From Deltaproteobacteria bacterium (lineage in GTDB: Bacteria; Myxococcota_A; Polyangia; Nannocystales; Nannocystaceae): DNA of 64,000 nt. Made by a program: the position numbers and the translations under genes. Shown here in pieces: positions 5,420 to 38,745 of the stretch. Under the pieces are notes generated by a model, which was not told where the DNA came from, did no database searches, and was given only the letters and a program-made list of their open reading frames with translations. Location: positions 1,669,414 through 1,733,413 of the forward strand of contig JADJRA010000001.1 in assembly GCA_016712475.1 (NCBI GenBank). The letters run 5' to 3'. Numbering within the stretch: the first letter of the stretch is position 1; each line of letters begins with the position of its first letter.

Positions 5420-6748
5420 TCACTCCTCGAACGGGTTCGCGAACGCGGGGTCGAGGAGGAACTCGTCGTCGGTCATCGACTCGAGGAATGCGATGACGGC
5501 GTCGATCTCTTCGTCGGTCGCGGGGAATCCGCGCACCAGCCCCGACTTGAGCGGGCTGACCCGACCATCGCCGGCGTACGGGCCCGTCTCGGTCACGGTG
5601 CCACCCGCGGCGTAGTGGTCGAGCACGTCACGGAGCGTCGCCTTGCTGCCGTCGTGCATGTACGGCCCGGTCACCGCGATGTTGCGCAGCGACGGGGGCC
5701 GGAACAACCCGCGATGGTCTGGATCGAAGGTCACCTCGAAGAGGCCCTGATCGTACGGCGGATAGCTGCCGTCGCCACCGACGTTGTAGAGCCCGTTGTT
5801 GAAGAACGGATACTGGATCGACCCCGGGTCGGAGTCCGCGTCGCGGTACGACGTGGTGAGGTTGATACCGTTGTGGCAGTGGAAGCACTCGAAGCGCTCG
5901 CCGAAGAACAGCGTCATGCCCTGGCGTTGCTGCTCGGTCAGCGCGTCGTGGTCACCGGCTACGAAGCGATCGTAGGGGCTGCGACCCGGGATCATCGTGC
6001 GACAGAAGCTCGCGAGCGCGAACACGATCTTGTTGACGGTCGCGCCCGACTCGCTCTCGGGGAACGCGGCCGCGAACATCGCTGCGTACATCGGATCGTC
6101 GTCGAAGCGCGCGAGCACCTCGGCCTCGTTGCCATCGTTGATCCCCAGCTCGACCGGATTGTCGTTGCGCAGCGGCACCTGCAGCTGGTCCTCGAGCTCG
6201 AGCAGCACGTTGCTCGCCCACGTGAACGTCGTGCGATACGCGACCATGCCGAGCGCCTGGCTGTTGCGCTCGAGCACAGTACCGGTCGAGCCGCTCGGCG
6301 TCGTCTCGGGGTCTGCAAATCCCAGCTCTTGGAAGTGGCAGTCGGCGCACGACTGCTCGAGGTTTCCCGACAGGCGACGGTCGTAGAACAGATGCCGCCC
6401 GAGCTCGATCTTCTCGGCCGTGAGCGGATTGAACTCGGGAATGTAGGGGGTCTCGAGGTGATCCGGCAGCCGCAGCAGCTCGCGAACGGGATCGACCGGG
6501 ACGCCGCCGCTCGACGAATCGGCGGCGCCCGTGTCGGTCGGCACACCCGTGTCGTCGCTGCTGCCGCTCGTGCTCGTGCTCGTGCTCGTTCCGGTGCCCG
6601 TGCTGCCGCCGCTGCTGCTGCTCGCACTGGCGTGCTCACCCGCGCCGCTGGGCGACGAGCATCCGATCGACGCGCACAGCGCGAGCGCAAGCGACGTTGC
6701 CGCCCGCGCCCGCGGCCGCTCTGCCTCACTGGGCAGCGAACACCGCAT
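5420..6748 (-). CDS. di-heme cytochrome c peroxidase family enzyme (MauG/CCP/MbnH-like)
   Basis: Two CxxCH heme motifs (CADCHF and CFHCHN). Spacing and surrounding residues are typical of the bacterial di-heme CCP/MauG family. Lipoprotein signal LALALCASIGCSS and a Ser/Thr/Gly linker. Confidence 0.85.
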   Translation of the reverse strand: MRCSLPSEAERPRARAATSLALALCASIGCSSPSGAGEHASASSSSGGSTGTGTSTSTSTSGSSDDTGVPTDTGAADSSSGGVPVDPVRELLRLPDHLETPYIPEFNPLTAEKIELGRHLFYDRRLSGNLEQSCADCHFQELGFADPETTPSGSTGTVLERNSQALGMVAYRTTFTWASNVLLELEDQLQVPLRNDNPVELGINDGNEAEVLARFDDDPMYAAMFAAAFPESESGATVNKIVFALASFCRTMIPGRSPYDRFVAGDHDALTEQQRQGMTLFFGERFECFHCHNGINLTTSYRDADSDPGSIQYPFFNNGLYNVGGDGSYPPYDQGLFEVTFDPDHRGLFRPPSLRNIAVTGPYMHDGSKATLRDVLDHYAAGGTVTETGPYAGDGRVSPLKSGLVRGFPATDEEIDAVIAFLESMTDDEFLLDPAFANPFEE

Positions 6749-7847
6749 CTTGATCCGCCGCCGAAACGCCATCGTCGATGTCGACGCCGAACGAGGCAAA
6801 GATGGTCCCACAGTGCGGCTGCATCGGCGACGAGTGACACTCGACGCCGGGCCCCTCGCCGATGATTTCGAACGTCTTGGGGTCATAGATCGGCGCGAGG
6901 AAGTCCACCCCCTCGAGCGCGCGCCCGAGGTCGACCGCGACCACACCGGTCGCGAGATCGAACCCGTCGAGGTCGACCTTCGGTGTGTTCAAGAATCCGC
7001 ACGCGTCTTGGTTCTCGAGCGCGAGCTCGCCATCCCCCGCGCAATCGGTGCTCCCGATGTGCAGGTAGCCGCCGCCCGCGACCGCCTCGGGGTCCTCCAC
7101 GGAGAAGTTGAACACGAAGTGGCGGTAGCCGGTCGCCCACGACCAGTACATCTCGCCCAGCGGCGACGGAGCCGCCTCCGCGCTCGTGGTGTTGATGAGA
7201 TCCTTCATCACGGCCTGCGGCACACCGACGTCGAAGCTGATCCGCGTCACGTCCGCGACCTGCGTCATGCCGGTGATCACGTCGTTCTCGCGCGCGGTGC
7301 CTTCGGCGAAGGCAATCGCGGAGGCTTCGCAATCGCCTTGGGTGTTGCTGGTGAGATCGATGAGCGAGACCTGTCCGGCATCACTCGTGTACTGGAAGTC
7401 GTTGACGTCGAGCTCGACGGTCACCTCGCTGCCGTCGGCGGCGTACATGTGCAGGTTGCTGATGTAGAACCGCAGATCCGCCGGGCTCGCGGTGTGCTCG
7501 CCGTCGGGGCCGAGCCCGGTGATCGTGCTGCCGCAACCGACCTCTTCGCCGTTGGCGACCGCCGCGAACCGCAGGCTGAACGGCGCGAGCGCCTCGCCGG
7601 TCGTGCTTCCGCCGGAGCTGTCGAGCCCGGTCGGGTCGGTCTCGCTCGTCGCCGTGGTGGCGCTGGTGGTGGTGGCGGTCGGGTCTGTCGTGGTCGTCGA
7701 TGCGGTGGTCGCCGAGGTGCTCGACATCGTCGGATCGCCGGTCGAGCCGTCGGCGTTCGTCGAAGTCTCCGCGTCGTCGCCACCGCAAGCGCCGAGGACC
7801 GCAGCAAACAAAAGGGTGGGCGCGAGTGTCCGGCAGTCCATCGTCAT
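6726..7847 (-). CDS. lipoprotein partner of the di-heme enzyme (possibly MbnP-like copper-binding protein)
   Basis: Lipobox LFAAVLGACGG, then a long Ser/Thr/Asp linker and a globular domain of about 270 aa. Overlaps the downstream di-heme gene by about 20 nt (operon). Identity is inferred from gene order only. Confidence 0.55.
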   Translation of the reverse strand: MTMDCRTLAPTLLFAAVLGACGGDDAETSTNADGSTGDPTMSSTSATTASTTTTDPTATTTSATTATSETDPTGLDSSGGSTTGEALAPFSLRFAAVANGEEVGCGSTITGLGPDGEHTASPADLRFYISNLHMYAADGSEVTVELDVNDFQYTSDAGQVSLIDLTSNTQGDCEASAIAFAEGTARENDVITGMTQVADVTRISFDVGVPQAVMKDLINTTSAEAAPSPLGEMYWSWATGYRHFVFNFSVEDPEAVAGGGYLHIGSTDCAGDGELALENQDACGFLNTPKVDLDGFDLATGVVAVDLGRALEGVDFLAPIYDPKTFEIIGEGPGVECHSSPMQPHCGTIFASFGVDIDDGVSAADQDAVFAAQ

Positions 7848-8129
7848 GTGTCGCGACGCTAGCCAGGCCGACCGCGCGCCGCCAGCGAGAATGGGGGGGC
7901 GCGAAAATTCGCCACATGCCTGGTGCCGCGTAGGCTCGAGTCGCGCATTGGGCATCGCAGGTGTTCCGCGAGGTGTTCAAGACTTGGCCAGCGCCGCCGG
8001 AGGGTCGCGGTGGCTGCGATGCCGTCGCGAACAGCGATGCCTCCCGCGTGACAGATCCGCAACGGGCATTCTCCGCCGCGTGCGCTAGCCTCGACGCAGG
8101 TCCGCCTCCGACGGGCAGCGGGTAGGATC

Positions 8130-20940: not shown

Positions 20941-23865
<2,925 letters not shown>

Positions 23866-25477: not shown

Positions 25478-26953
25478 TTGCAGTCCAGTGCGTCCATGCG
25501 GAAGCGATCGATCGTGGAGACCCTGTGGTGCGCATGCCTGGGACTCGTCGCGGCGGCCGGCTGCAGCGCGGCGAGCTTGCAGGGCGACGACCACGGCGGC
25601 GCGTGCCGATCGCCGGCAGGCTGCTTCGGTGACGACGCCGGCACCAGCGGTGCGAGCGGCTGGGATCCCGCCGACGACAGCAGCGACGGCAGTGGAGCCG
25701 CAACCGGCGGCGACGAGGCGACCTCGTCCGAGCCACCACGAGGGCCGCAGCTGCCGTGCGACGTCGCGGCCGCGCTGTCGCGGGCGTGCGGCGAGTGCCA
25801 CGGCGACACGCCGGCCTACGGCGCCCCGATGTCGCTGGTGGACTTCGATGACCTGCACGTGCCCGCGCCGACCGACCCCACCCGCTCGGTGTTCGATCTC
25901 GTCGGCGAGCGCATCACCGCCGACACGAAGATGATGCCACCCGACGACGACATCACCGACGCCGAGCGGGCCGCGTTGTTGTCGTGGATCGAGGCCGGCG
26001 CACCGGCGGATCCCGACGCCCAGTGCGGCGATCTCCCGCCGCCCGACGATGGCCCCGACGTCGGCCCCGAGGCGCTGCCGTGCGAGACCAACTTCGAGGT
26101 GCGTGCACACGCGCCCGGCGGCCAGGGTGGCTTCCAGGTGCCAGCGCAGGGCGCCGACGATCTCTACCAGTGCTTCGCCTTCAAGGCGCCGTTCACCGAG
26201 CCTCGGCAGGCGGTCGCGTGGGCCCCGATCATCGACGACGAGCGCGTCGTGCACCACTGGATCCTCTACCGCACGCCGTCACCGCAGGAGGACGGCGGTG
26301 TGTTCCCCTGCGATGTCTCGCTGCAGGTCTCGGCGGAGTTCGTCGCGGGCTGGGCCCCCGGTGGTGGCAACGTGCTGATGCCCGAGGGCGTCGGCCTCGA
26401 GCTCGGCGATCCCAACGACTGGTACGTGCTGCAGGTCCACTACCACAACACCGCGCACCACCAGGACGCCGTCGACGCCAGCGGCGTGGCCTTCTGCATG
26501 CCGGACGAGCCGCGCCCGCAGACCGCCGGCGTGCTCACCCTCGGCACCACGAGTCTGAACATCCCCGCCGGCGCGGTTGCCCACGAGGAGACCGGCAACT
26601 GTGGCGGGCTGCTGACGCTGTTCTGGCCCGGCGACCTGCACATCATCGGGAGCTCACCGCACATGCACGAGCTCGGCCGTGGCTTCCACACCGAGCTGGT
26701 GCGCGCCGGCGGCGTCACCGAGGTCGTCACGGACGTGCCGGTGTTCAACTTCGAGAGCCAGGGCATGTACTTCAACGCGCCCGAGATCGTGGTGCACCCC
26801 GGCGAGTCCCTGCGCACTACCTGCGTCTTCGACAACCCCGGCGCCGAGATGGTGCACTTCGGTGAAGGCACCACCGACGAGATGTGCTTCAACTTCGTGC
26901 TCGCCTACCCCATCCAGCAGCTCAACAATCGCAACTGCGGGATCGTGTTCTAG
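25478..26953 (+). CDS. secreted protein: N-terminal CxxCH module fused to a copper type II monooxygenase-like (PHM/DBH-like) domain
   Basis: Lipobox LGLVAAAGC. CGECHGD heme-c-type motif near the N-terminus. HHWILY, HYHN, HMHELG and DEMCFNF are spaced like the CuH (H,H..H) and CuM (HxH..M) ligand sets of PHM/DBH. Fold assignment is inference. Confidence 0.6.
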   Translation: MQSSASMRKRSIVETLWCACLGLVAAAGCSAASLQGDDHGGACRSPAGCFGDDAGTSGASGWDPADDSSDGSGAATGGDEATSSEPPRGPQLPCDVAAALSRACGECHGDTPAYGAPMSLVDFDDLHVPAPTDPTRSVFDLVGERITADTKMMPPDDDITDAERAALLSWIEAGAPADPDAQCGDLPPPDDGPDVGPEALPCETNFEVRAHAPGGQGGFQVPAQGADDLYQCFAFKAPFTEPRQAVAWAPIIDDERVVHHWILYRTPSPQEDGGVFPCDVSLQVSAEFVAGWAPGGGNVLMPEGVGLELGDPNDWYVLQVHYHNTAHHQDAVDASGVAFCMPDEPRPQTAGVLTLGTTSLNIPAGAVAHEETGNCGGLLTLFWPGDLHIIGSSPHMHELGRGFHTELVRAGGVTEVVTDVPVFNFESQGMYFNAPEIVVHPGESLRTTCVFDNPGAEMVHFGEGTTDEMCFNFVLAYPIQQLNNRNCGIVF

Positions 26954-27116
26954 TACCTCGACACAGCGATAGTGATGGGTCAGAACGCCGTCATGGCCGC
27001 GACTCCGCAAGGCGCCGTGCCGCCGGAATACCGGGCGTATTTCAAGGTGCGGCAACGCAGCGAGGCGCGGTCAGGGCGGTGTTATGGCCCGTCACTATCG
27101 CTGTGTCGAGGTACTA
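26950..27116. repeat. MITE-like element: 167 bp bounded by 26-bp perfect inverted repeats
   Basis: Left arm CTAGTACCTCGACACAGCGATAGTGA (about 26950-26975) is the exact reverse complement of the right arm (about 27091-27116). The arms are less GC-rich (about 54%) than the genome. The outer CTAG of each arm supplies the stop codon of a convergent flanking gene. Confidence 0.6.
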
Positions 27117-27734
27117 GCCGGGTGCGGTGTTGCGGCGCAGCGGCTCGGGCAGCCACGCGTCGAGCATGCTGTGCGGCGGATCGCCCAGCGGTGTCAGCAG
27201 CAACGGGGTCCGTCGCGTCGCGATCGGCGAGGCCAGTGTGGTCTCGCCGAGCGCGAGCTCGATCCGCTTGGCGGCGCCGGCGACCAGCTCGGCGCCGCTG
27301 GGCAGCCGCGCCGGGCGACCACGCACCGCCAGCACACACTCGATCGCCACGATGATCCGCGAGCGCTCCGAGACGGGCCACGCGCTGGGATCGTGCTCGC
27401 CCCACGGCACGAGCGCGTCCTCGATGAGCGGCAGTCGTCGCGTGACCTCCAGCTGCAGTGACTCGCCCGGTGGCAGAGCGCAGGCGGTCGGCCACACCGG
27501 CATCGCCGTCGCCGCGGCCCACGGCGCGGGCCGAAAGCGCCCTGCGCCCACGACGATGCAATCGTCGCCACCGTGCTGGCAGTGCCACCAAGCCCGAGTG
27601 CCGGTGGGATCGAGCAGCATGGGATGGATCGGCGCACGCGTGTCGTTGTGCAGCACGATCGCGAGTTCGAGGCGATCACCGCGCACGCGTGCGTCGACCC
27701 GGAGCGGCACCGAGGTTGCGACGACGATCGTCAT
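27114..27734 (-). CDS. hypothetical protein (206 aa), candidate second immunity/accessory protein
   Basis: Start overlaps the stop of the upstream gene (ATGA). Composition is coding-like. Confidence 0.5.
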   Translation of the reverse strand: MTIVVATSVPLRVDARVRGDRLELAIVLHNDTRAPIHPMLLDPTGTRAWWHCQHGGDDCIVVGAGRFRPAPWAAATAMPVWPTACALPPGESLQLEVTRRLPLIEDALVPWGEHDPSAWPVSERSRIIVAIECVLAVRGRPARLPSGAELVAGAAKRIELALGETTLASPIATRRTPLLLTPLGDPPHSMLDAWLPEPLRRNTAPG

Positions 27735-28330
27735 GGACTCCGCGACCGCAGTCGACGCAGCTCAACCGGCAAGAGATGATCGACGGTGCTCATGATCCCG
27801 CGCGGCAGCGGATCGGGAAGCACCGCGCGCGCGATCGTGCTGGGCGCGGGCAGCTCGGCCCACGCCCACGCGGCGATCACCGGCTCGACCAGCCCGATGC
27901 CATGGCTGTCGGTGCGCGCGTCGTGGGTGGCCGCGACCGCAGCGACCGGCACGACCTGCACGCCGGCCAGCACCCGCAACACCGGCACGCGCTCGACTTC
28001 GAGGGCGGCGGCGCGGGCGATGGCGGTCTCGGTGAGGCGACGCCCGAGCGAGAGCGTGCGCTGCCAGCCGCGCTCGGGATCGATGCGTTCGCCGCGGGGC
28101 AGGATCGGCGCCGCCGACAGCAAGCCGTCCGGCACGCGCACCTGACCGAACCACACCAGGGCGCCATCGTTGCCGATCGACTGCACAACCGGACGCGCGC
28201 GGGGGCCTTGGCAGTCGCGAACCAACGCGAAGCAGCTGTCCTCGATCCGCAGCCGCAGGCTCAGCCGCAGCTCGCCGCGATCGATCGCGATCGCAGCGTC
28301 GAGTCGGTGGCGAGGGCTGGCTGCGTTCAT
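27731..28330 (-). CDS. hypothetical protein (199 aa), candidate immunity protein
   Basis: Begins 13 nt after the toxin gene stop, same strand. No motif recognised. Confidence 0.5.
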   Translation of the reverse strand: MNAASPRHRLDAAIAIDRGELRLSLRLRIEDSCFALVRDCQGPRARPVVQSIGNDGALVWFGQVRVPDGLLSAAPILPRGERIDPERGWQRTLSLGRRLTETAIARAAALEVERVPVLRVLAGVQVVPVAAVAATHDARTDSHGIGLVEPVIAAWAWAELPAPSTIARAVLPDPLPRGIMSTVDHLLPVELRRLRSRSP

Positions 28331-28343
28331 GGCTCGCGCTCGC

Positions 28344-29735
28344 TCACGGGAACGGCGACGTATAGGTGGTGCGGGTCGGCAGGCCGGTCTCGGTGCGGTA
28401 GCTGTTCTCGGCGGCGACCGTCGAGTACTCCTCGTGGTTCACCCACCGGCTGTCCCAGCCATGCTCGGAGTTGGTCGCGAGCTGGCGACTCGCACCCTCG
28501 GAGTGGTTCGCCGCGTGGTTCATCTCGTGGAAGAGAATCGCGTCCGAGCTGGTGCCCGGCGCGGGATGGGCGTGGCCGCCGGCGGCCCACGGATTGGCGG
28601 GGTGGTTGGCCCAGTTCGAGGGCATGTGCTCGACGGTGGTCGGCGCCCCCGGCATGCGCAGGCCCGTCGGCGTGTCCATGAACGCGTCCCAGTTGCCGTG
28701 ATGATCGGCGACGGCGTTGAGCGGGCCGTTCGCGCCGTGGTACGGCACGATCGTCACCGGCTTGCCCGCGCGTTCGATCCGCTCGAGCGCCTCGCGACCG
28801 GCCCGCGTCCGCGCCATGCGTTCGAGATCGCGGGTGACATCGTCGGCCCAGCCGGTCGGCGCACCGTGGGGGCTCACGTGCACGTGCTGCAAGTTGCGCA
28901 CGTAGCGAGCCGCGGTCAGGCGCCGGAACACCGAGCCGCCCACGCGGAACAACGCCTTGAAGCCCTGGGCGATCGCGAGGCTGAACAGCGACGGGAACGG
29001 GATACCGCCGACCACCACGTTCGCCGAGCCCGGGCCGACCGTGGTGCCGATCATCGGCCCCATCGGCGGATCGCTGGGCTTCGGCGACGAGAAGGTGCAG
29101 TGCTTGGTGATGTCGACCGCGAGCCGAGCCGCGCGCGCGCCCTCGATCCACACCGACGACGAGCCCAGGAAGATCTCGAACATCGGGAAGTAGCCACCGC
29201 ACCAGATGCCGAGGCCCATGTCGCCGCAGCGGGCGGCCGCGCGAGCGTTGACCATCACCGTCGAAGCGCCCGAGAGGATCGGAATCGGGATGATCGGGCC
29301 CATGCTCGGCAGCGGGATCGGCACGGGATTGGGCGGCGTCAGGTTCGGCGGGTGGTTGTGCGCGTGGGGTAGCCCGACGTCGAGGTCCCACATGCGCAAC
29401 GCCGGGAACGCAGGGAACGCAGGCAGGCCGAGCGCGTCGGCGATCTGGCCCATGGTCTGGGTGATCGCCATCTCGACGTGGATCGCCGCCTGCACGCCCG
29501 CGGCCAGGGTCGCGAGCACACCACCGCCACCGCCGGCGTGACCATCGGCGCCCGCCGGGCCACCGGCCTCGCCGCCGCCGGAATCGGCGTGGCCCGACGC
29601 GCGGCCGGCCGCAGCGACCGTGACCCCGCCGGCACCCGATCGACCGGCGTTGACCGTCGCGCGCTCGCCCCACTGCGAGTACAGCTCGGCGGCACGCGAG
29701 AAGCGGATGTTCGACAGATGATCGAGCACGCCCAT
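28344..29735 (-). CDS. PAAR-like (DUF4150-type) protein with C-terminal HExxH metallopeptidase-like toxin domain
   Basis: Real start MGVLDHLS at 29735 inside ORF 28344..30353. Repeats GASTVMVNARAAARCGDMG and GSSSVWIEGARAARLAVDITKHC match the PAAR consensus (G..V.ING.PAAR.GD..HC). Pro-rich LPHAHNHPPNLTPPNPVPIPLP segment. C-terminal ILFHEMNHAANH gives an HExxH motif. Confidence 0.7.
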   Translation of the reverse strand: MGVLDHLSNIRFSRAAELYSQWGERATVNAGRSGAGGVTVAAAGRASGHADSGGGEAGGPAGADGHAGGGGGVLATLAAGVQAAIHVEMAITQTMGQIADALGLPAFPAFPALRMWDLDVGLPHAHNHPPNLTPPNPVPIPLPSMGPIIPIPILSGASTVMVNARAAARCGDMGLGIWCGGYFPMFEIFLGSSSVWIEGARAARLAVDITKHCTFSSPKPSDPPMGPMIGTTVGPGSANVVVGGIPFPSLFSLAIAQGFKALFRVGGSVFRRLTAARYVRNLQHVHVSPHGAPTGWADDVTRDLERMARTRAGREALERIERAGKPVTIVPYHGANGPLNAVADHHGNWDAFMDTPTGLRMPGAPTTVEHMPSNWANHPANPWAAGGHAHPAPGTSSDAILFHEMNHAANHSEGASRQLATNSEHGWDSRWVNHEEYSTVAAENSYRTETGLPTRTTYTSPFP

Positions 29736-29737
29736 GG

Positions 29738-31570
29738 CTACGGCTCCTCGCTCGGCGGCGCGATCGCCCCGTGTCGGCGTGCGGACTCGATCTCGCGCTT
29801 CTTGTCGGCACCCATGCCGAGCTTGTCGAACACCCGCGCCTTGCGCTGGAGGATGTCGGCGCGCGAGCTGTCGGCGGCATCGCCGAAGGTCTCGGGGACC
29901 GCATTGCAGCAGGCCAGCGCGCGATCGAACTCGACCACGGCGTCGACGCGACGCCCGGCCTTGGCGTGCGACTCGGCGATCCACGTGCGCGCGTACGCTT
30001 CGGCGAGGTGGTTGCGCATGTTGGCGTAGTACTTGGCCGCGATCGTGTAGCGCTCGATCGCTCGATCGCAGGCGCCGACCATGAAGTCGCAGTGACCGAT
30101 GCCGGTCATGCCACTGGCCGCGAGCACGGCGTGGTCGTGCTCGACCGCGACCTCGACGCAGCGGGCGTACGCCTCCATCGCCTTGTCGAACGCGGCGCAG
30201 TGGTACAGCGCGCCGCCCATCCCGTACCACGCGCTGGCGATCTCGATCGGCTCCTCGGTCGCGTGCGCGAGCTCGAGGCTCTCGATCTGCAGGGCCATGC
30301 CGCGCTCGGGATCGCCATTGTGCATGCGATAGGCGGCCAGCGCCGAGAGGCACCGCAGTCGTTCGATGGTCGGCAGCTCAGGCTGGGCGAGCTTGTCGGT
30401 CAGGCCCTTCTCGATCACTGGACCGTCGATGCGAAAGTCGAGGGTTCGCATCACCGCGCGCAAGGGCGCGCCAGCGAGGCGCTCGACGCCGGGGGCAACG
30501 GCGCACACACGGACCTTCGCGCTCACCAGTACACGGGCGAGTCGCGCCAGCGAGGCGAGGAACTCCTGCTGCTCGCCCGGTGGCACCTCGTCGTCGATCG
30601 CAGCGGCGAGCACGACGATGAGCTCCTGCTCGGGGTCGAGCACGGTGCGTTGCACCCGGAGCAACAGCTGCGCGAAATGGACCTCGGCACCGTGGCGCCC
30701 GATCGGAGCGGCGATCTCCGCCAACAGTGCAGCGGTGCGATCACCTCGACCCACGCGCTCGGCGTGGGCGTGGACCTGGCGCACGACCGCCTCGGCGACG
30801 CGACCATAGAAGTGAATCGGCCGCCAGAACCTGACCTCCTCGGCATGGACGACCAGCGCGCGGTTGGCCAGCCCGGCCTCGATCAACGCCGAGACCAGCC
30901 ACGCCTGCCCGCGGCGCGGCGCGTCATAGACCAGCATGCGCGGCAGCGGATCGATCATCGCATGGCGGATCGTCGCGCCGATGGCCGCCGCGTCGCCCTG
31001 CCGCAGCGCGACCACGCGCGGCCGCGCGACCTCGACGTCGCGCACGATGCCCGCACTCGGCTCGACCATCAGCAGCAGCTTGAAGCGACCGCTCTCGGTC
31101 GCCTCGGTGATCCGGCCGAGCGTCGCTGCGAGCTCGAGCGAGCGCGCGTCCTCGCGATCGATCGACAGCACCATCACCACGCCCTCGACGAAGGGGTCGA
31201 ACGCGAGCGCCGATTGCTCGGCGTACTCGGCCAGCAGCTGCTCGATCGTGCGACCGCGGGAGCCCGCACGCGGATCGAACGGTGGCGGCGGCTCGATCGT
31301 GATCTCGGCCGCGGCGGCCTCGCGCACGGCGGCATCGACTGCCGCGGCGATTGCCTCGCCGATCGCCGCGCAGTACGACGCGCCATCGACGAAGCGATCG
31401 TCCATCGCCGCCCACAGCCGCCGACCATCGTCGGCGAGCCCGGCGAGCAGCTTCGCCGCCGCGGCCCGCTGATCCGCTGCGGCGCGCAGCTCGAGCACCA
31501 CCGCGTCGGGCTCGGCGAGGAACCCGTGGATGGCAGTGATGCGCGACTGCACGTACTCGGTGAGCGGCAT
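29738..31570 (-). CDS. hypothetical protein with C-terminal TPR-like repeats (610 aa), first gene of the toxin operon
   Basis: Start MPLTEYVQ at 31570 inside ORF 29738..31780. Stop lies 2 nt before the toxin gene start. Confidence 0.55.
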   Translation of the reverse strand: MPLTEYVQSRITAIHGFLAEPDAVVLELRAAADQRAAAAKLLAGLADDGRRLWAAMDDRFVDGASYCAAIGEAIAAAVDAAVREAAAAEITIEPPPPFDPRAGSRGRTIEQLLAEYAEQSALAFDPFVEGVVMVLSIDREDARSLELAATLGRITEATESGRFKLLLMVEPSAGIVRDVEVARPRVVALRQGDAAAIGATIRHAMIDPLPRMLVYDAPRRGQAWLVSALIEAGLANRALVVHAEEVRFWRPIHFYGRVAEAVVRQVHAHAERVGRGDRTAALLAEIAAPIGRHGAEVHFAQLLLRVQRTVLDPEQELIVVLAAAIDDEVPPGEQQEFLASLARLARVLVSAKVRVCAVAPGVERLAGAPLRAVMRTLDFRIDGPVIEKGLTDKLAQPELPTIERLRCLSALAAYRMHNGDPERGMALQIESLELAHATEEPIEIASAWYGMGGALYHCAAFDKAMEAYARCVEVAVEHDHAVLAASGMTGIGHCDFMVGACDRAIERYTIAAKYYANMRNHLAEAYARTWIAESHAKAGRRVDAVVEFDRALACCNAVPETFGDAADSSRADILQRKARVFDKLGMGADKKREIESARRHGAIAPPSEEP

Positions 31571-31731
31571 GTTCGAAGGTAGACCGAAACGTAGCGCCGA
31601 GGATCCGAGGTGTCCACGTCGCCGCGGGGTCGTGCCGCGTCGTCGCGGACCCCCGTCGGATGGCTCGATCGCGCACGATCGGGCGCGCAGACGCGAATCC
31701 GCAGGGCAGCCCGCGCACTGCTGCTGCGCGA

Positions 31732-32526
31732 TTAATTCTCGCGCGGGGCCGTACCGCTCGCGCCGTCGCGACAAGGCCACAGGCCCACGAGGTCGTCGCC
31801 GCGGCGGTACATCCAGCGCATCACCTCGCGCTCGACGAGGTCGTCGTCGTCCACGCGCTGACGAGCATACGCGGGGCCCTTGGGGTCGAGCGCCATGAAT
31901 GCAAAGAACCGTTCCGAGCCCTCACCGCACGGTGCGTCGAGGCGATAGACATCGAGGGCATCGTCTTGCCGCTGCCCGACTCCGAACGCGCGGCGCAGCG
32001 GTGCGCAGGCCCGCGCGGCCTCGATCAGTCGGTTCATCTCGCGCTCGTGACTGTCGCCGTCGAGCAGCGGCACCTTGCTGCGCAGGGCCGCGGCACAGGG
32101 GTACTCCGCGCAATCGACCACCTCGAGCTCCGCGTCGATGCCGCAGGCCTCGAAGGCCTCGTCGACCGTCGCGGACCACTGCTCGGGCGACTCGATGCCC
32201 GCCGGCTCGGGGAACTCGTGGCGCACCGCAGCCCGCTCGCGGCGAGACTCGGCGAGCTCCGACTCGCACCAGCGTTGCCGCAGCTCGAGTTCCTCGCACG
32301 AGGCGTCACGCCCGAGCGGGCGCCCGACCGGCGCGCACACCAGCGATCGCAACGCGCGTGGAACCGGCTGCGCTTGCGCGGGCTCGGGCTCATCGGGGGC
32401 CGAGGTCGGCGGGATCGCGTCGATGGGCGCAGGCCACACGCAGCGCCCAAGCGCGAATGCGGACCCCAGTGCGAGCACGCCGATCGCTGCGCGCAGTACA
32501 GACGACACGTGCGATGGCGTGGACAC
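31732..32526 (-). CDS. secreted hypothetical protein
   Basis: Signal peptide MSTPSHVSSVLRAAIGVLALGSAFALG. 264 aa, acidic. Confidence 0.5.
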   Translation of the reverse strand: MSTPSHVSSVLRAAIGVLALGSAFALGRCVWPAPIDAIPPTSAPDEPEPAQAQPVPRALRSLVCAPVGRPLGRDASCEELELRQRWCESELAESRRERAAVRHEFPEPAGIESPEQWSATVDEAFEACGIDAELEVVDCAEYPCAAALRSKVPLLDGDSHEREMNRLIEAARACAPLRRAFGVGQRQDDALDVYRLDAPCGEGSERFFAFMALDPKGPAYARQRVDDDDLVEREVMRWMYRRGDDLVGLWPCRDGASGTAPREN

Positions 32527-35596: not shown

Positions 35597-38506
35597 TCAC
35601 GGCCGCACGAGCGTCGCGAGCCACGCGTCGATCTCGGCGCGCTCGGGCGCGGCCGGATCGTAGAGCGCTTGCGCGGCACGGGCGAGCTCGTCCACGTCGG
35701 ATCGCGAGCCGCCGCTGGCCCAGGTCGCCTCGGCGAGTCGGCGGCGTGCGGTCGCGCGCTGATCGGCCGACGCACCGCCGCGATCGAGACGCTCCTGCGC
35801 CTCACGAGCCGTGGCAAGGGCCGCGTCGGCGTCGCCCAGCTGCAGCTGCGCGGTGCACAGATCGAGCAGGACCGCGCCGAGGTCGGGATGATCGGGCTGC
35901 GTCTTTGCCAGCAAAGTGCGAGCGCGCTCGAAATGGGCGAGCGCCGCGGCCGGGCGCTCGAACGCGAGCTCGTCGTTGCCCAGGCCCACGAGGATTGGCG
36001 GCAGCAAGGTGTGCGCGGGGCCCAGCTTCTCCTCGATGATCGCGAGCGCCCGCCGGTGATGCGCGAGCGCGTCGTCGAGGCGACCCAACGCTCGTTCGGC
36101 GTCGCCGAGGTTGCCGAGGGCGTTGGCCAGCTCGGGATGGTCCGGCCCGAGCGCGCGCTCGAAGATCGCCACGGCGCGCTCGAGCTGCCGCGCGGCGTCG
36201 GCCGGCCGCTTCGCACTGCGCGTGACGACGCCCAGATTGGTGAGGCTCTGCGCAACGCGGGGATGATCGGGCCCGAAGGCGGCCTCGTTGACCGCGAGCA
36301 CGCGCGCCATCAATGCGGCAGCCTGCTCGAGATCGCCGCGACGCCAGTACACCTCGGCCTCGTTCGACAGCGCGTTGGCGACGTCAGGGTGATCCTCGCC
36401 GAAGGTGGCGACGAAGATCGCTCGCGCCCGCTCGTAGCTCGCGAGCGCCTCGTCGAGGCGGCCGAGATCGACGAGCGTGGTGCCGAGGTTGTTGAGCGAC
36501 AACGCCACGTCGGGGTGCTCGGGACCAAGCCGCTCGCGGAGGATCGCGAGTGCACGCGTGTGATGGGCGAGCGCATCGTCGAGGCGGCCGAGATCGCGGG
36601 CCATCACGCCGAGCTCGTTGTGCATCCGCGCACCGCGGAGGTCACCCTCCTCGCCGAGTCGCTCGACCAGCGACTCGGCCCAGCGCGCCCACAGCTGGCC
36701 TTCGGCGGGCCGCACCAGTCGCAGCGCGACGACCACCGCGAGGCGGCGCGCCGCATCGGCCGCCTCGGCATCCTCGCCCAGCTCGACGGCGGCGAGCACC
36801 GCCTGGGTCAGCTCGCGCTCGGCATCGTCGTGACGGCCGACCCTCTCGAGCAGTGCCCCGACACGCGCGCGGCTGCGGACGATGAGCGCCGGATCACCGT
36901 GCGCCTCGGCGTCGGCGAGCAAGCCCTCGGCCATCGCGAGCGCGGGTTCGGCACGGCCTGCCGCCTGCAGCGCATCGACGCGGACGAGCTGCCGTTCGAT
37001 CGCGAGATCGCTCGCATCGCGCTCGGCCGGGGCATGACGAACCACCCAACCGACGTCCTGGCAGCGCTCGACCGGGGGCAGCTCGGCCGCGAGCAGCAGT
37101 GCCTTGCCGACGAACTTCCGGTCGGCCTCACGCGCGACCTCGAGAAGCGCCGCGAACGACTCGGCCTCGAGGTCCAGACAGTCGCGCATTCCGGCGACGA
37201 TCGCAGGGGGCTGCGTGCCGTCCAGCCCCGCACGGCACGCATCGACGCGCGCGGCGGACCAGCGTGCGGCATAGTCGTCGATGGCGGGCGAGAACTTCGC
37301 GATCGTCGGGGTCGCAAACGGCACCTCGGTGGTGCGCATCGCGGTCTCGACCTCGGCACGGATGCGATCGTCCCAGTGCTCGTCGATGGCATCGCCCTCG
37401 CGATCGCAACCTGCGAGCGCGCGCACGTGGGCGATCCGCCACGCCGCCGCGCCGCCGCCGGCGAGCGCGAGCAACCCACCCACCGCCAACCAACGTCGAC
37501 GGCGCTGTCGCGGATCGCGGGCGAGGGCAGCGAGCAGCGCATCGAGATCTTCGAAGCGGTCGGCCGGCGCCAGGGCAAGCCCGCGATCGAGCACCCGGCG
37601 TACGAACGTGGGAACGCCAGTCGCGAGCTTCGGTTCGACACGTCGGCCCGAGAGCACCGCGGCCGCCAGTTCGGGCAGCGAACGCGCGGCGAACGGACGA
37701 CTGCCGTACACGCCCTCCCACAGCGCCACGCAGAAGCTGAACTGATCCGAGCGGGGATCGATCGGCATGCTCTGGAACTGCTCGGGGGACATATACGCTG
37801 GCGTACCCACCGTCGTGCCGGTGCGCGTCAGATCGGTGGCGAGCGCGTCGGTGCGCGGCCGCGGCCCGTCGCTCGTGATCTCGTCGACGTGCTGCACCCG
37901 CACGAGCCCGAAGTCCATGACGAGCACGCGACCGTCGTCGCCGACCATCACGTTGTCGGGCTTGAAGTCGCGATGCACGAGCCCCTTGCGATGCGCGGCC
38001 GCGAGTCCGCGTCCGGCCTGCATCATGACGGCGATCACCTCGCTCCACGTGCGCGGACTCGCCTGCAGCCACTGCCGGAGCGTCACGCCCTGCACCAGCT
38101 CCATCGCGAGAAACACCTGGCCCTCGTGCGTGCCGACGTCATGCACGGCGATGACATTGGGGTGGCTCACCCGCGCCATCGCCTGGGCCTCGCGCAGCAG
38201 TCGATCGTCGACGCCGGGGCTGGCGGCCGCCTGGTCCTCGTCGCCGAAGAGCCGATGCATGAGCCGCCCCAGCACGCGGGCCTCGCCGAGCTCCGCATGC
38301 AGTCGATGCAGCAGTTTGAGCGCGACCCGGCGGTCGAGCTCGGGATCGTACGCCGCATAGACGGTCCCCATGCCGCCCGCACCGAGCCGATCGAGCACCA
38401 CGTAGCGACCGATCGTCTGGCCGCGCGCGAAGCCCTCGCCGCGTGGGCGGGCACCGGTGCCGTCGGCCGGCCCCGAGCCTTTGGTCGTCTCGGTCTCGCC
38501 GCTCAC
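35597..38506 (-). CDS. Ser/Thr protein kinase with TM segment and C-terminal TPR repeats
   Basis: Kinase motifs LGAGGMGTVYAAYD, HRDFKPDNVMV, DFGLVR, GTPAYMSPEQ. Hydrophobic segment WLAVGGLLALAGGGAAAW. About 450 aa of TPRs. Start taken as GTG (VSGETETT) at 38506 with GGCGGAAG upstream. The long Arg-rich N-terminal extension in the track ORF is doubtful. Confidence 0.85.
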   Translation of the reverse strand: MSGETETTKGSGPADGTGARPRGEGFARGQTIGRYVVLDRLGAGGMGTVYAAYDPELDRRVALKLLHRLHAELGEARVLGRLMHRLFGDEDQAAASPGVDDRLLREAQAMARVSHPNVIAVHDVGTHEGQVFLAMELVQGVTLRQWLQASPRTWSEVIAVMMQAGRGLAAAHRKGLVHRDFKPDNVMVGDDGRVLVMDFGLVRVQHVDEITSDGPRPRTDALATDLTRTGTTVGTPAYMSPEQFQSMPIDPRSDQFSFCVALWEGVYGSRPFAARSLPELAAAVLSGRRVEPKLATGVPTFVRRVLDRGLALAPADRFEDLDALLAALARDPRQRRRRWLAVGGLLALAGGGAAAWRIAHVRALAGCDREGDAIDEHWDDRIRAEVETAMRTTEVPFATPTIAKFSPAIDDYAARWSAARVDACRAGLDGTQPPAIVAGMRDCLDLEAESFAALLEVAREADRKFVGKALLLAAELPPVERCQDVGWVVRHAPAERDASDLAIERQLVRVDALQAAGRAEPALAMAEGLLADAEAHGDPALIVRSRARVGALLERVGRHDDAERELTQAVLAAVELGEDAEAADAARRLAVVVALRLVRPAEGQLWARWAESLVERLGEEGDLRGARMHNELGVMARDLGRLDDALAHHTRALAILRERLGPEHPDVALSLNNLGTTLVDLGRLDEALASYERARAIFVATFGEDHPDVANALSNEAEVYWRRGDLEQAAALMARVLAVNEAAFGPDHPRVAQSLTNLGVVTRSAKRPADAARQLERAVAIFERALGPDHPELANALGNLGDAERALGRLDDALAHHRRALAIIEEKLGPAHTLLPPILVGLGNDELAFERPAAALAHFERARTLLAKTQPDHPDLGAVLLDLCTAQLQLGDADAALATAREAQERLDRGGASADQRATARRRLAEATWASGGSRSDVDELARAAQALYDPAAPERAEIDAWLATLVRP

Positions 38507-38745
38507 ATGCTTCCGCCCGCTTCGCGCTGCCCGCTGGCTGTCGTCGGGCGCTCGGCAACCTGTGCGGGACGCCGGTCGCTCGAGCGTACCAGGGTTGTAC
38601 GCGGCCGCGGCACCAACCCCACCGCGCCGCCGCTCCCCACGGCGCATCGCACGGATCGGCTCGCGCCATCGAGCCACGCATGGACGCGACGCGGAGCGAC
38701 GCGGCCGGCTTCGGGTAACATCGCCGCCCCGAGGGAGAGCCGACG

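Follow-up and report, generated by a model that had tools for sequence, protein, structure and literature searches.

Between two convergent genes of an uncultured Myxococcota-like bacterium lies what is very probably a MITE, namely a non-autonomous DNA transposon of 164 bp that has no coding content and is bounded by perfect terminal inverted repeats of 22 nt, inserted at the CTAG in which the stop codons of both genes converge. It was found in a stretch of 64,000 nucleotides, which we refer to as the window. The element is a clean and well-documented example of a kind of element that is already known. It encodes nothing and stays below the limit of about 500 bp for such elements, it has terminal inverted repeats, and the comparison of filled with empty sites reveals a duplicated target at two independent loci. 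Several dispersed copies at unrelated loci, counted across related (meta)genomes, complete the picture, and the mobile MITE-like insertion that an earlier note had suspected from the letters of the window is thereby borne out.

An inverted-repeat unit between two stop codons

Including both copies of the CTAG target, the unit measures 168 bp and spans window positions 26950-27117. The earlier note had described a unit of 167 bp at 26950-27116; the inverted-repeat element itself is real, while its right end has to be moved to 27117. The 26-bp perfect terminal inverted repeats reported there, of which 22 nt belong to the inserted DNA and four to the CTAG, were confirmed as exact: the left arm CTAGTACCTCGACACAGCGATAGTGA at 26950-26975 returns as its reverse complement at 27092-27117, with 116 bp between the perfect arms (earlier given as about 115). 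Within the 64-kb window the 22-mer core occurs only twice, at both ends of the element, and it was matched in none of 100 shuffles. The arms are indeed AT-richer than their environment, as had been remarked, with a GC content of 50% (13 of 26 by direct count) as opposed to about 70% in the surroundings. A few open reading frames touch the unit and run out of it, some on the opposite strand of the 206-aa gene, others overlapping the monooxygenase gene out of frame; they were judged spurious, and no coding capacity is left to the unit.

Table 1. Coordinates of the element, its target copies and the flanking genes in the window
Feature	Position	Strand	Basis or remarks
Copper type II monooxygenase-like gene	25496..26953, start approximate	+	Pfam PF01082, PF03712; gene calls of relatives
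Target CTAG, left copy	26950..26953		TAG at 26951-26953 is the stop of the monooxygenase-like gene; empty sites of relatives have one CTAG
Left terminal inverted repeat, 22 nt, TACCTCGACACAGCGATAGTGA	26954..26975	+	Same CTAG-preceded terminus in L010, L013, L020, L031, L064
Internal non-coding part, imperfect palindrome prolonging the hairpin	26976..27091		Arm pairing; RNA and DNA folding
Right terminal inverted repeat	27092..27113	-	Exact reverse complement of the left repeat
Target CTAG, right copy	27114..27117		Contains CTA at 27114-27116, read as stop TAG by the minus-strand 206-aa gene
206-aa gene, no Pfam family	27114..27734	-	Final gene in the PAAR/Peptidase_M91 effector operon

On one side the element is flanked by a gene whose monooxygenase-like product has a length of about 480-485 aa in relatives, on the other by a gene for a 206-aa protein identical to MBK8235273.1 (IPK74_06945). 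The outer CTAGs provide the stop codons of both genes, as the earlier note had recognized (Table 1). One of its two readings was that the insertion rewrote the 3' ends of the genes, which is not the case: empty sites already end both genes in one shared CTAG, and the alignment of filled with empty alleles leaves both C-termini unchanged. As the duplication of the target restores a TAG for each gene, both proteins remain the same. The idea that the element marks the boundary of an accessory region had to be abandoned as well, since relatives without it show an unchanged order of the flanking genes, comprising on both sides together the PAAR/M91 effector operon, the Cu-monooxygenase and a glyoxalase.

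Filled and empty sites at two loci

The site in the window, locus 1, is found empty in 18 contigs of relatives. They read ...CCCGG-CTAG-AACACG... at this position, and the convergent genes overlap in the single CTAG. The set comprises L002-L007, which agree with the window at 93-97% of nucleotides, L008 and L009 (78-88%), and L054-L063. Compared to the empty allele, the filled one has 164 extra bp and a second CTAG. The identical 168 bp are present in the window and in three MAGs (L036-L038) that are 99.57% identical over 20.6 kb, and the junction from gene to repeat is also seen in short-read contigs from eight more samples (L001, L039-L045). An assembly artefact was considered and rejected, because the junction recurs in the assemblies of four MAGs, and many independent samples show it in their short-read contigs as well.

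A second locus between an LTD gene and a SpoU methylase gene offers the same comparison. Here the empty site is GGGCTG-CTAG-GCCATCC in L046-L053, and the filled site is represented by a complete 168-bp copy in L064, which has CTAG on both sides and two differences to the window copy (98.8% identity). Further contigs contain only the junction (L031/L069, L065-L068, L070-L072); among these, the flanks of L031 are 98.2% identical to L046 and its 122 nt of the element are 100% identical to the copy in the window. The search for target-site duplications in relatives, suggested earlier as a check, has thus returned a duplicated CTAG, or a duplicated TA within CTAG.

The two loci are occupied in a reciprocal manner. 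Locus 1 is filled and locus 2 is empty in GCA_016709225.1, GCA_017996215.1 and ERR14790672/73/92, and the opposite holds for GCA_009612795.1, ERZ25038378, SRR21112150, SRR29782983, SRR29782969 and SRR14932526. This reciprocity is observed within single assemblies and samples.

Further copies and the extent of the family

Decayed copies were detected at three more unrelated loci, all of them starting with CTAG-TACCTC: an internally deleted copy with CTAG on both sides (L010), a solo end (L013), and a right half that stops at the apex of the hairpin (L020). Together this amounts to five distinct loci across related (meta)genomes, with two complete copies and three remnants. Near L013 and L010 no second inverted end was seen at three or fewer mismatches, nor any inverted repeat, and no homologues were found of the open reading frame flanking the copy in L020.

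Searches with the end of the element return little beyond this set. Among 185,579 species-representative genomes, a single one has the exact 18-mer end in its CTAG context, and in the metagenome collection it was met in two contigs, both from the same assembly. The 18-mer alone has 22 metagenome and four genome matches, of which only L010, L013, L020 and L031 combine the CTAG-T context with further similarity; the remaining ones were set aside as chance matches or unrelated conserved genes. As the end is matched so rarely, the family appears to be low-copy and narrow, unlike classic high-copy MITEs. A looser search for the end, allowing six or fewer mismatches in 26 over 528 kb of window and related sequence, gave no new copies. 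A set of 72,556 plasmids contained no BLASTN match to the 168-bp unit, and the end is absent among viral contigs. In full-text literature the end sequence coincides with an unrelated primer only, and a literature search for MITEs in myxobacteria returned nothing relevant.

The CTAG target and the presumed transposase behind it

In the host genome, which has a GC content of 70%, CTAG is strongly avoided: the window contains 14 sites, compared to 173 expected from composition and corresponding to 0.31 of the Markov expectation. At four of the five insertion sites the target CTAG contains the TAG stop of a gene. Because CTAG is rare and often lies on TAG stops, insertions come to lie at the ends of genes, whose stops they restore.

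How could the element have arrived there? A transposase encoded elsewhere would bind the repeats and integrate the element at CTAG; as no autonomous element with matching repeats was found, we infer that a DDE transposase mobilises it in trans. Integration would duplicate either CTAG as a whole (4 bp, IS5/IS701-like) or only its central TA (2 bp, IS630/Tc1-mariner-like), and since CTAG is palindromic, the two outcomes look the same in the sequence. At locus 1 the insertion probably took place in the ancestor of the lineage, into the single CTAG of the overlapping convergent stops. Each gene would have kept its own TAG with neither protein altered, so that the sole effect would be the replacement of a 4-bp tail-to-tail overlap by a 160-bp intergenic gap that is predicted to form a very stable hairpin. 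On a larger scale, a CTAG-specific element and selection against insertions within genes would together lead to an accumulation at gene 3' ends.

Two main candidates come into consideration for the family of the transposase. An IS5-group or IS701-family enzyme that produces a true 4-bp CTAG duplication, with an element reading TACCTC...GAGGTA, has in our view just short of an even chance of being the right answer. Duplications of CTAG or of exactly 4 bp are known from such systems: IS5 gives CTAG direct repeats (PMC10379815), MITEPsy1, a 100-nt derivative of ISPsy2, duplicates CTAG or YTAA (PMC3189936), and members of the IS701 family have duplications of exactly 4 bp (PMC2266710). The ends weigh on the other side. 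After CTAG our element starts with TACCTC, which bears no resemblance to the ends of MITEPsy1 and IS5 (GGAAGGT...; GG/GA-initial), and a comparison by eye with the IS701-type consensus ---YACT-Y--YR, starting after CTAG, matches four of seven specified positions, which is not above chance. No partner of either type was found in the scanned genes.

Somewhat less probable, and still a serious candidate, is a transposase of the IS630/Tc1-mariner type that prefers CTAG and duplicates TA only. The element would then be the 164 bp GTACCTC...GAGGTAC, and its left repeat would have 23 nt counted from G26953. Full CTAG flanks all eight element ends seen, as a CTAG-preferring TA duplicator would give. 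IS630 transposes preferentially to the TA within 5'-CTAG-3', according to the title of Tenzen & Ohtsubo 1991 as given in the references of PMC2170065. A terminal TA is found in most bacterial MITEs, one of which, RUP, has been ascribed to IS630-Spn1 (PMC2229807). On the other hand, a 4-bp CTAG duplication fits the eight ends equally well, and neither a transposase of this type nor a full-length partner is present in the scanned genes. Pfam detected no transposase domain in the 39 ORFs of the window (two repeats among them), nor is there one among the precomputed Pfam matches for the gene calls of related loci, which add up to about 460 kb.

Gain or loss

The empty sites could in principle be read in the opposite direction, with the element ancestral at locus 1 and lost from relatives by a precise, hairpin-stimulated deletion between the two CTAGs. 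Long palindromes between short direct repeats are deletion-prone, and the internal deletion in L010 and the half copy in L020 show that the element does suffer deletions. We nevertheless regard this course of events as very unlikely. The distant L008 and L009 are also empty, which makes a single gain in the 99.6% clade more parsimonious, and locus 2 shows the opposite distribution. In addition, copies at different loci share 98.8-100% identity, with differences at only two to three positions among the copies, despite a divergence of 2-7% between their host lineages.

The hairpin and the question of RNA

The complementarity of the arms runs past the perfect 26 nt to 56 nt at 86%, and the entire unit folds as one near-perfect hairpin. 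Folding of the element, which had also been recommended, gives this single structure with -125.1 kcal/mol for the plus-strand RNA (z = -13.4), -102 kcal/mol for the minus-strand RNA (z = -10.1) and -71.2 for DNA (z = -11.9). Its apex loop is CGGGC at 27032-27036, with GAATAC and GTATTT on its sides. The two related segments of about 21 bp that the earlier note had spotted in the spacer are the next stretch of both hairpin arms and pair via G.U wobbles.

Such a stable structure on both strands, located between convergent genes, might suggest a native and non-mobile origin, either as a bidirectional intrinsic terminator or as the gene of a structured small RNA. The outer 56 pairs include five transition mismatches, every one of which is a G.U pair in the plus-strand fold, and this would agree with selection on an RNA; with a two-sided p of about 0.06, this asymmetry could equally reflect strand-biased C>T mutation. 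For high-GC bacteria, 'I-shaped' terminators that lack a U-tract have been proposed. Yet this origin, to which we give next to no credence, is already contradicted by the distribution of the element: the 18 contigs of relatives lack it at the syntenic site, and unrelated loci contain it, so that the conserved bidirectional terminator considered in the earlier note falls away. The local signals point in the same direction. In an intrinsic terminator a GC-rich stem-loop is followed by a T/U run, but no T-run follows the stem here, the plus strand continuing with CTAGCCGGG and the minus strand with CTAGAACAC. Consensus scans found no terminator-like site on either strand of 26600-27500, and no promoter motif or IHF site at the element. 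None of the Rfam 15 covariance models has a match overlapping 26950-27117, even at E up to 10.

The hairpin may have a terminator-like side effect, and it may act as a transcription barrier or as a 3'-end stabiliser for the converging mRNAs. It is just as implausible as a native origin that we are dealing with a PATE (a transposase-free IS200/IS605-type derivative) or another single-strand, hairpin-dependent element that inserts beside CTAG and duplicates nothing: the unit does form a single long hairpin, and with a right end itself ending in CTAG, an insertion 3' of a CTAG target would mimic a duplication, but PATEs and IS605-type elements have no terminal inverted repeats and carry separate subterminal palindromes at each end (PMC3119063), whereas here we find perfect inverted repeats of 22-26 nt, a duplicated target and no local end hairpins.

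Comparison with known elements and implications

The inserted MITE has several counterparts among described elements. MITEPsy1 of Pseudomonas syringae pv. phaseolicola is likewise short and non-coding, has terminal inverted repeats and inserts at CTAG, and its mobility was shown, as here, via filled and empty sites (PMC3189936). Its ends GGAAGGTCTGAAAAAGCC have no sequence similarity to TACCTCGACACAGCGATAGTGA, it measures 100 nt and its parent IS is known, whereas our element has 164 bp, is palindromic throughout, resides in a Myxococcota-like host and has no parent among the sequences found. With IS630 and its MITEs it has in common the CTAG/TA target, TA at the boundaries, a repeat length in the range of 20-30 nt and an overall size within about 100-170 bp. 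Among them, RUP of S. pneumoniae reaches about 100 copies per genome (PMC2229807), in contrast to the few documented for our element.

Along the same lines, Correia/NEMIS, ERIC and YPAL/RU-2 are MITE-like units of 100-170 bp that form one long stem-loop on transcription (PMC2229807). Most of their copies occupy intergenic regions or the 3' ends of genes, where an influence on the processing or stability of mRNA can result (PMC2229807). YPAL, with 168 bp, lacks the terminal TA and shows variable duplications of 3-26 bp (PMC2229807). These families differ from ours in their hosts (Neisseria, enterobacteria and Yersinia), in their unrelated sequences and in their high copy number.

One could go a step further and propose that uncultured Myxococcota-like bacteria harbour a low-copy MITE family not described so far, which is 'stop-codon-seeking' via CTAG, lands on TAG stops, overlapping convergent ones among them, and regenerates them at no coding cost, whose hairpin has been co-opted as a U-tract-less bidirectional insulator or 3'-end stabiliser, and whose G.U bias towards plus-strand folding is a trace of RNA selection. 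Taken as a whole, we consider this extended scenario unlikely.

What the locus offers is a natural experiment, in which the same gene pair exists either with a 4-bp overlap or with a hairpin of 164 bp in between, the proteins being unchanged. Lineages of both states co-occur across public wastewater and environmental metagenomes. By comparing the two states, one can directly examine how converging transcripts respond to a MITE hairpin with regard to termination, RNA stability or antisense interference, in a phylum whose terminators are poorly understood. The locus also illustrates how a rare, stop-containing palindrome as target steers a transposon to harmless sites. In practice, the element breaks short-read assemblies at locus 1, and annotators should label it a repeat rather than a regulatory RNA or the boundary of an island.

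An element present or absent at two loci

The 168-bp element between the converging copper monooxygenase-like and 206-aa genes is, very probably, a miniature inverted-repeat transposable element (MITE), as the earlier note had proposed. It has the features that define such elements: empty and filled alleles, here at two loci, a duplicated target, dispersed copies, inverted ends and no coding capacity. The class is well known, and this is a new, low-copy representative of it.

At its site in the window (locus 1), 18 contigs of related genomes and metagenomes (L002-L009 and L054-L063) are empty and read CCCGG-CTAG-AACACG. There the convergent genes overlap by 4 bp, and the single CTAG is the stop of both (e.g. 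L002, 7417-7420). The flanks of L002-L007 are 93-97% identical to the window in nucleotides on both sides; those of L008 and L009 are more distant (78-88%), and the tail-to-tail overlap of two TAG stops is kept that far out. Aligned with the empty site, the window shows 164 additional bp and a second CTAG between the same flanks. Over 20.6 kb, three MAG assemblies, L036-L038 (GCA_016709225.1, GCA_020050275.1, GCA_017996215.1), match the window at 99.57% identity, and each has exactly its 168 bp in the identical position; the junction from gene to element end is found in short-read contigs of eight further samples (L001, L039-L045), which break inside the element. An assembly artefact is ruled out by these three MAG assemblies and eight samples. 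At locus 1 a single narrow clade has fixed the element, which its sister and outgroup lineages lack.

Both flanking TAG codons named in the earlier note were recovered, one on each strand. Its suggestion that an insertion rewrote both gene ends fails, since the last residue of each protein is the same at empty and filled sites. Nor does the element mark the boundary of an accessory region: the order of TPR protein, PAAR and Peptidase_M91 effector, 199-aa gene and 206-aa gene on one side, and Cu-monooxygenase and glyoxalase on the other, is conserved in genomes without it.

An 18-nt element end was scanned against 185,579 species-representative genomes and a metagenome collection. This gave mostly chance matches and four with a CTAG-T context and further similarity: L031 and three decayed copies at other loci (L010, L013 and L020). 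In L031 (WBZX01015357), 122 nt up to the contig end show 100% identity to the window copy and lie downstream of an LTD-domain gene; the source assembly is empty at locus 1. This second site (locus 2) is empty in L046-L053 of the window's clade, reading GGGCTG-CTAG-GCCATCC (e.g. L046, 10902-10905), where a convergent SpoU-methylase gene has its stop codon in the CTAG. L064 is completely filled, GGGCTG-CTAG-[164 bp]-CTAG-GCCATCC, and seven further contigs hold the filled junction. Within single assemblies or samples the pattern is reciprocal: filled at locus 1 is empty at locus 2, and vice versa. Copies at the two loci are 98.8-100% identical despite flanks that differ by 1.8% (L031 against L046) and, at locus 1, by 3-7% between the two lineages, which fits insertion after the lineages split.

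The L064 copy differs from that of the window at two bases (L064 3923 and 4048, element positions 22 and 147). The two positions pair with each other in the hairpin; the changes, A>C in the left arm and T>A in the right, are not complementary. The former also occurs in L066, L068, L070 and L072; the latter, in a single contig at 1.7x coverage, may be an error.

A hairpin between converging genes

The element runs from CTAGTACCTCGACACAGCGATAGTGA to TCACTATCGCTGTGTCGAGGTACTAG. Its 26-nt termini are exact reverse complements, as first described, although the right end had been placed one base short, at 27116; the unit is thus 168 bp. A repeat finder extends the inverted repeat to 56-nt arms, 86% complementary, around a 56-nt spacer, and two "related 21-bp segments" reported earlier exist as the continuation of these arms. 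A direct count gives 50% GC for the ends, which are thus AT-richer than the background of about 70% GC. The 22-nt core of the end occurs nowhere else in the 64-kb window and in none of 100 shuffles.

When folded, the entire unit forms a single hairpin, at -125.1 kcal/mol for plus-strand RNA (shuffle mean -70.4, z = -13.4), -102 kcal/mol for minus-strand RNA (z = -10.1) and -71.2 kcal/mol for DNA (z = -11.9). The greater stability of the plus-strand fold comes from the transition mismatches in the outer 56 pairs: all five are G.T on this strand and A.C on the other (two-sided p ~0.06 for the G.U asymmetry). Strand-biased C>T mutation can also explain this; a C at position 27 of remnant L010, where the window copy has T, fits it. 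The element matches no Rfam family.

A native terminator, the alternative offered earlier, is not supported: relatives lack the element at the syntenic site, and neither a T-run nor a terminator or promoter consensus is present. Before insertion, a transcript of either gene would have had to enter the other; afterwards, both would end in or traverse the hairpin (-100 to -125 kcal/mol). As an analogy to Correia, ERIC and related elements would have it, this could block read-through or 3' exonucleases (PMC2229807).

Logan short-read contigs (L001, L039-L045, L065-L072) stop systematically 7-52 nt into the element, so the hairpin or repeat breaks de Bruijn assemblies at both loci.

Target choice and mobilisation

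Avoidance of CTAG in the window is strong: base composition predicts 173 sites, and there are 14 (0.31 of the second-order Markov expectation). Two of these sites are the element's own flanks, and at least three of the other 12 are TAG stops of well-supported genes (11121, 20941, 41512). Other 4-nt palindromes (e.g. GATC, TCGA, GGCC) are near expectation. At four of the five known insertion sites the CTAG holds a stop codon. An element requiring CTAG would meet few targets in this genome, and selection would remove insertions inside genes. Insertion into a stop-bearing CTAG would be harmless because the duplication returns a TAG to each side; a neat feature of the element is that it entered the overlapping stops of two convergent genes without any cost to coding.

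Its ends would be bound, and the element integrated, by a DDE transposase whose gene lies elsewhere. Pfam revealed no transposase domain in the window genes scanned or among precomputed matches of the related-locus neighbourhoods, and there is no further end-like sequence in the 528 kb examined. As CTAG is palindromic, a 4-bp duplication looks the same as a TA duplication within it. A true 4-bp duplication by IS5-group- or IS701-like mobilisation is plausible, if short of probable: IS5 gives CTAG repeats (PMC10379815), MITEPsy1 targets CTAG/YTAA (PMC3189936) and IS701 duplicates exactly 4 bp (PMC2266710), but the ends are unlike those of MITEPsy1 (PMC3189936) and match the IS701 consensus at chance level only (PMC2266710). 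IS630-like mobilisation with a TA duplication is possible, and held more tentatively; the IS630 target is TA within CTAG (Tenzen & Ohtsubo 1991, cited among the references of PMC2170065). Something else is unlikely.

Neighbouring genes and decayed copies

Features of the window and remnants of the element in other contigs
Feature	Position	Strand	Remarks
MbnP-like and di-haem cytochrome c peroxidase (MauG/MbnH-like) genes	5420-7955	-	
Ser/Thr kinase-TPR paralogues	20941-23865; 35597-38677	-	bracket locus 1
Copper type II monooxygenase-like gene	25496-26953; stop TAG 26951-26953	+	PF01082, PF03712
Element	26950-27117		164 bp inserted plus second CTAG
206-aa gene	stop TAG = CTA at 27114-27116	-	gene call
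Operon adjoining element	27114-31780	-	TPR protein, PAAR + Peptidase_M91 effector, 199-aa and 206-aa genes
PAAR-motif + Peptidase_M91 effector, 463 aa	28344-29735	-	PAAR 28.2 bits, M91 38.3 bits
Remnant L010			left 42 nt joined to last few bases of right end; CTAG both sides, left = M28 peptidase stop
Remnant L013	3189-3221		solo end
Remnant L020	591-677		right half from hairpin apex (element position 82); CTAG = stop of Cys-rich ORF

The 206-aa protein is identical to MBK8235273.1 (IPK74_06945) of a MAG labelled "Deltaproteobacteria bacterium", a placeholder that NCBI now files under Myxococcota; this placement agrees with a GC content of 70% and with numerous Ser/Thr kinases that carry TPR domains. 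Parts of the two kinase paralogues are about 70-77% similar in nucleotides. A search of 5.8 billion proteins found only four homologue clusters of the very rare 206-aa protein, and their contigs led to the empty sites at locus 1. Neither this protein nor the 199-aa product matches a Pfam family; that they are immunity proteins is a guess. The Cu-monooxygenase-like gene also has a weak cytochrome c domain match and lies about 19 kb from the MbnP-like and MauG/MbnH-like pair, with which it may form a copper-related set.

The element family predates the species holding the window, since remnants L010 and L013 belong to another MAG (ZH-15may19-289, 66-68% GC). The half copy in L020 could reflect a centre-break deletion of the palindrome or a chimeric metagenome contig. 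The solo end in L013 abuts a 14-bp GC-rich stem-loop (AGGAGCCAGACCCC/GGGGTCCGGCTCCT), whose final stem bases overlap the CTAG.
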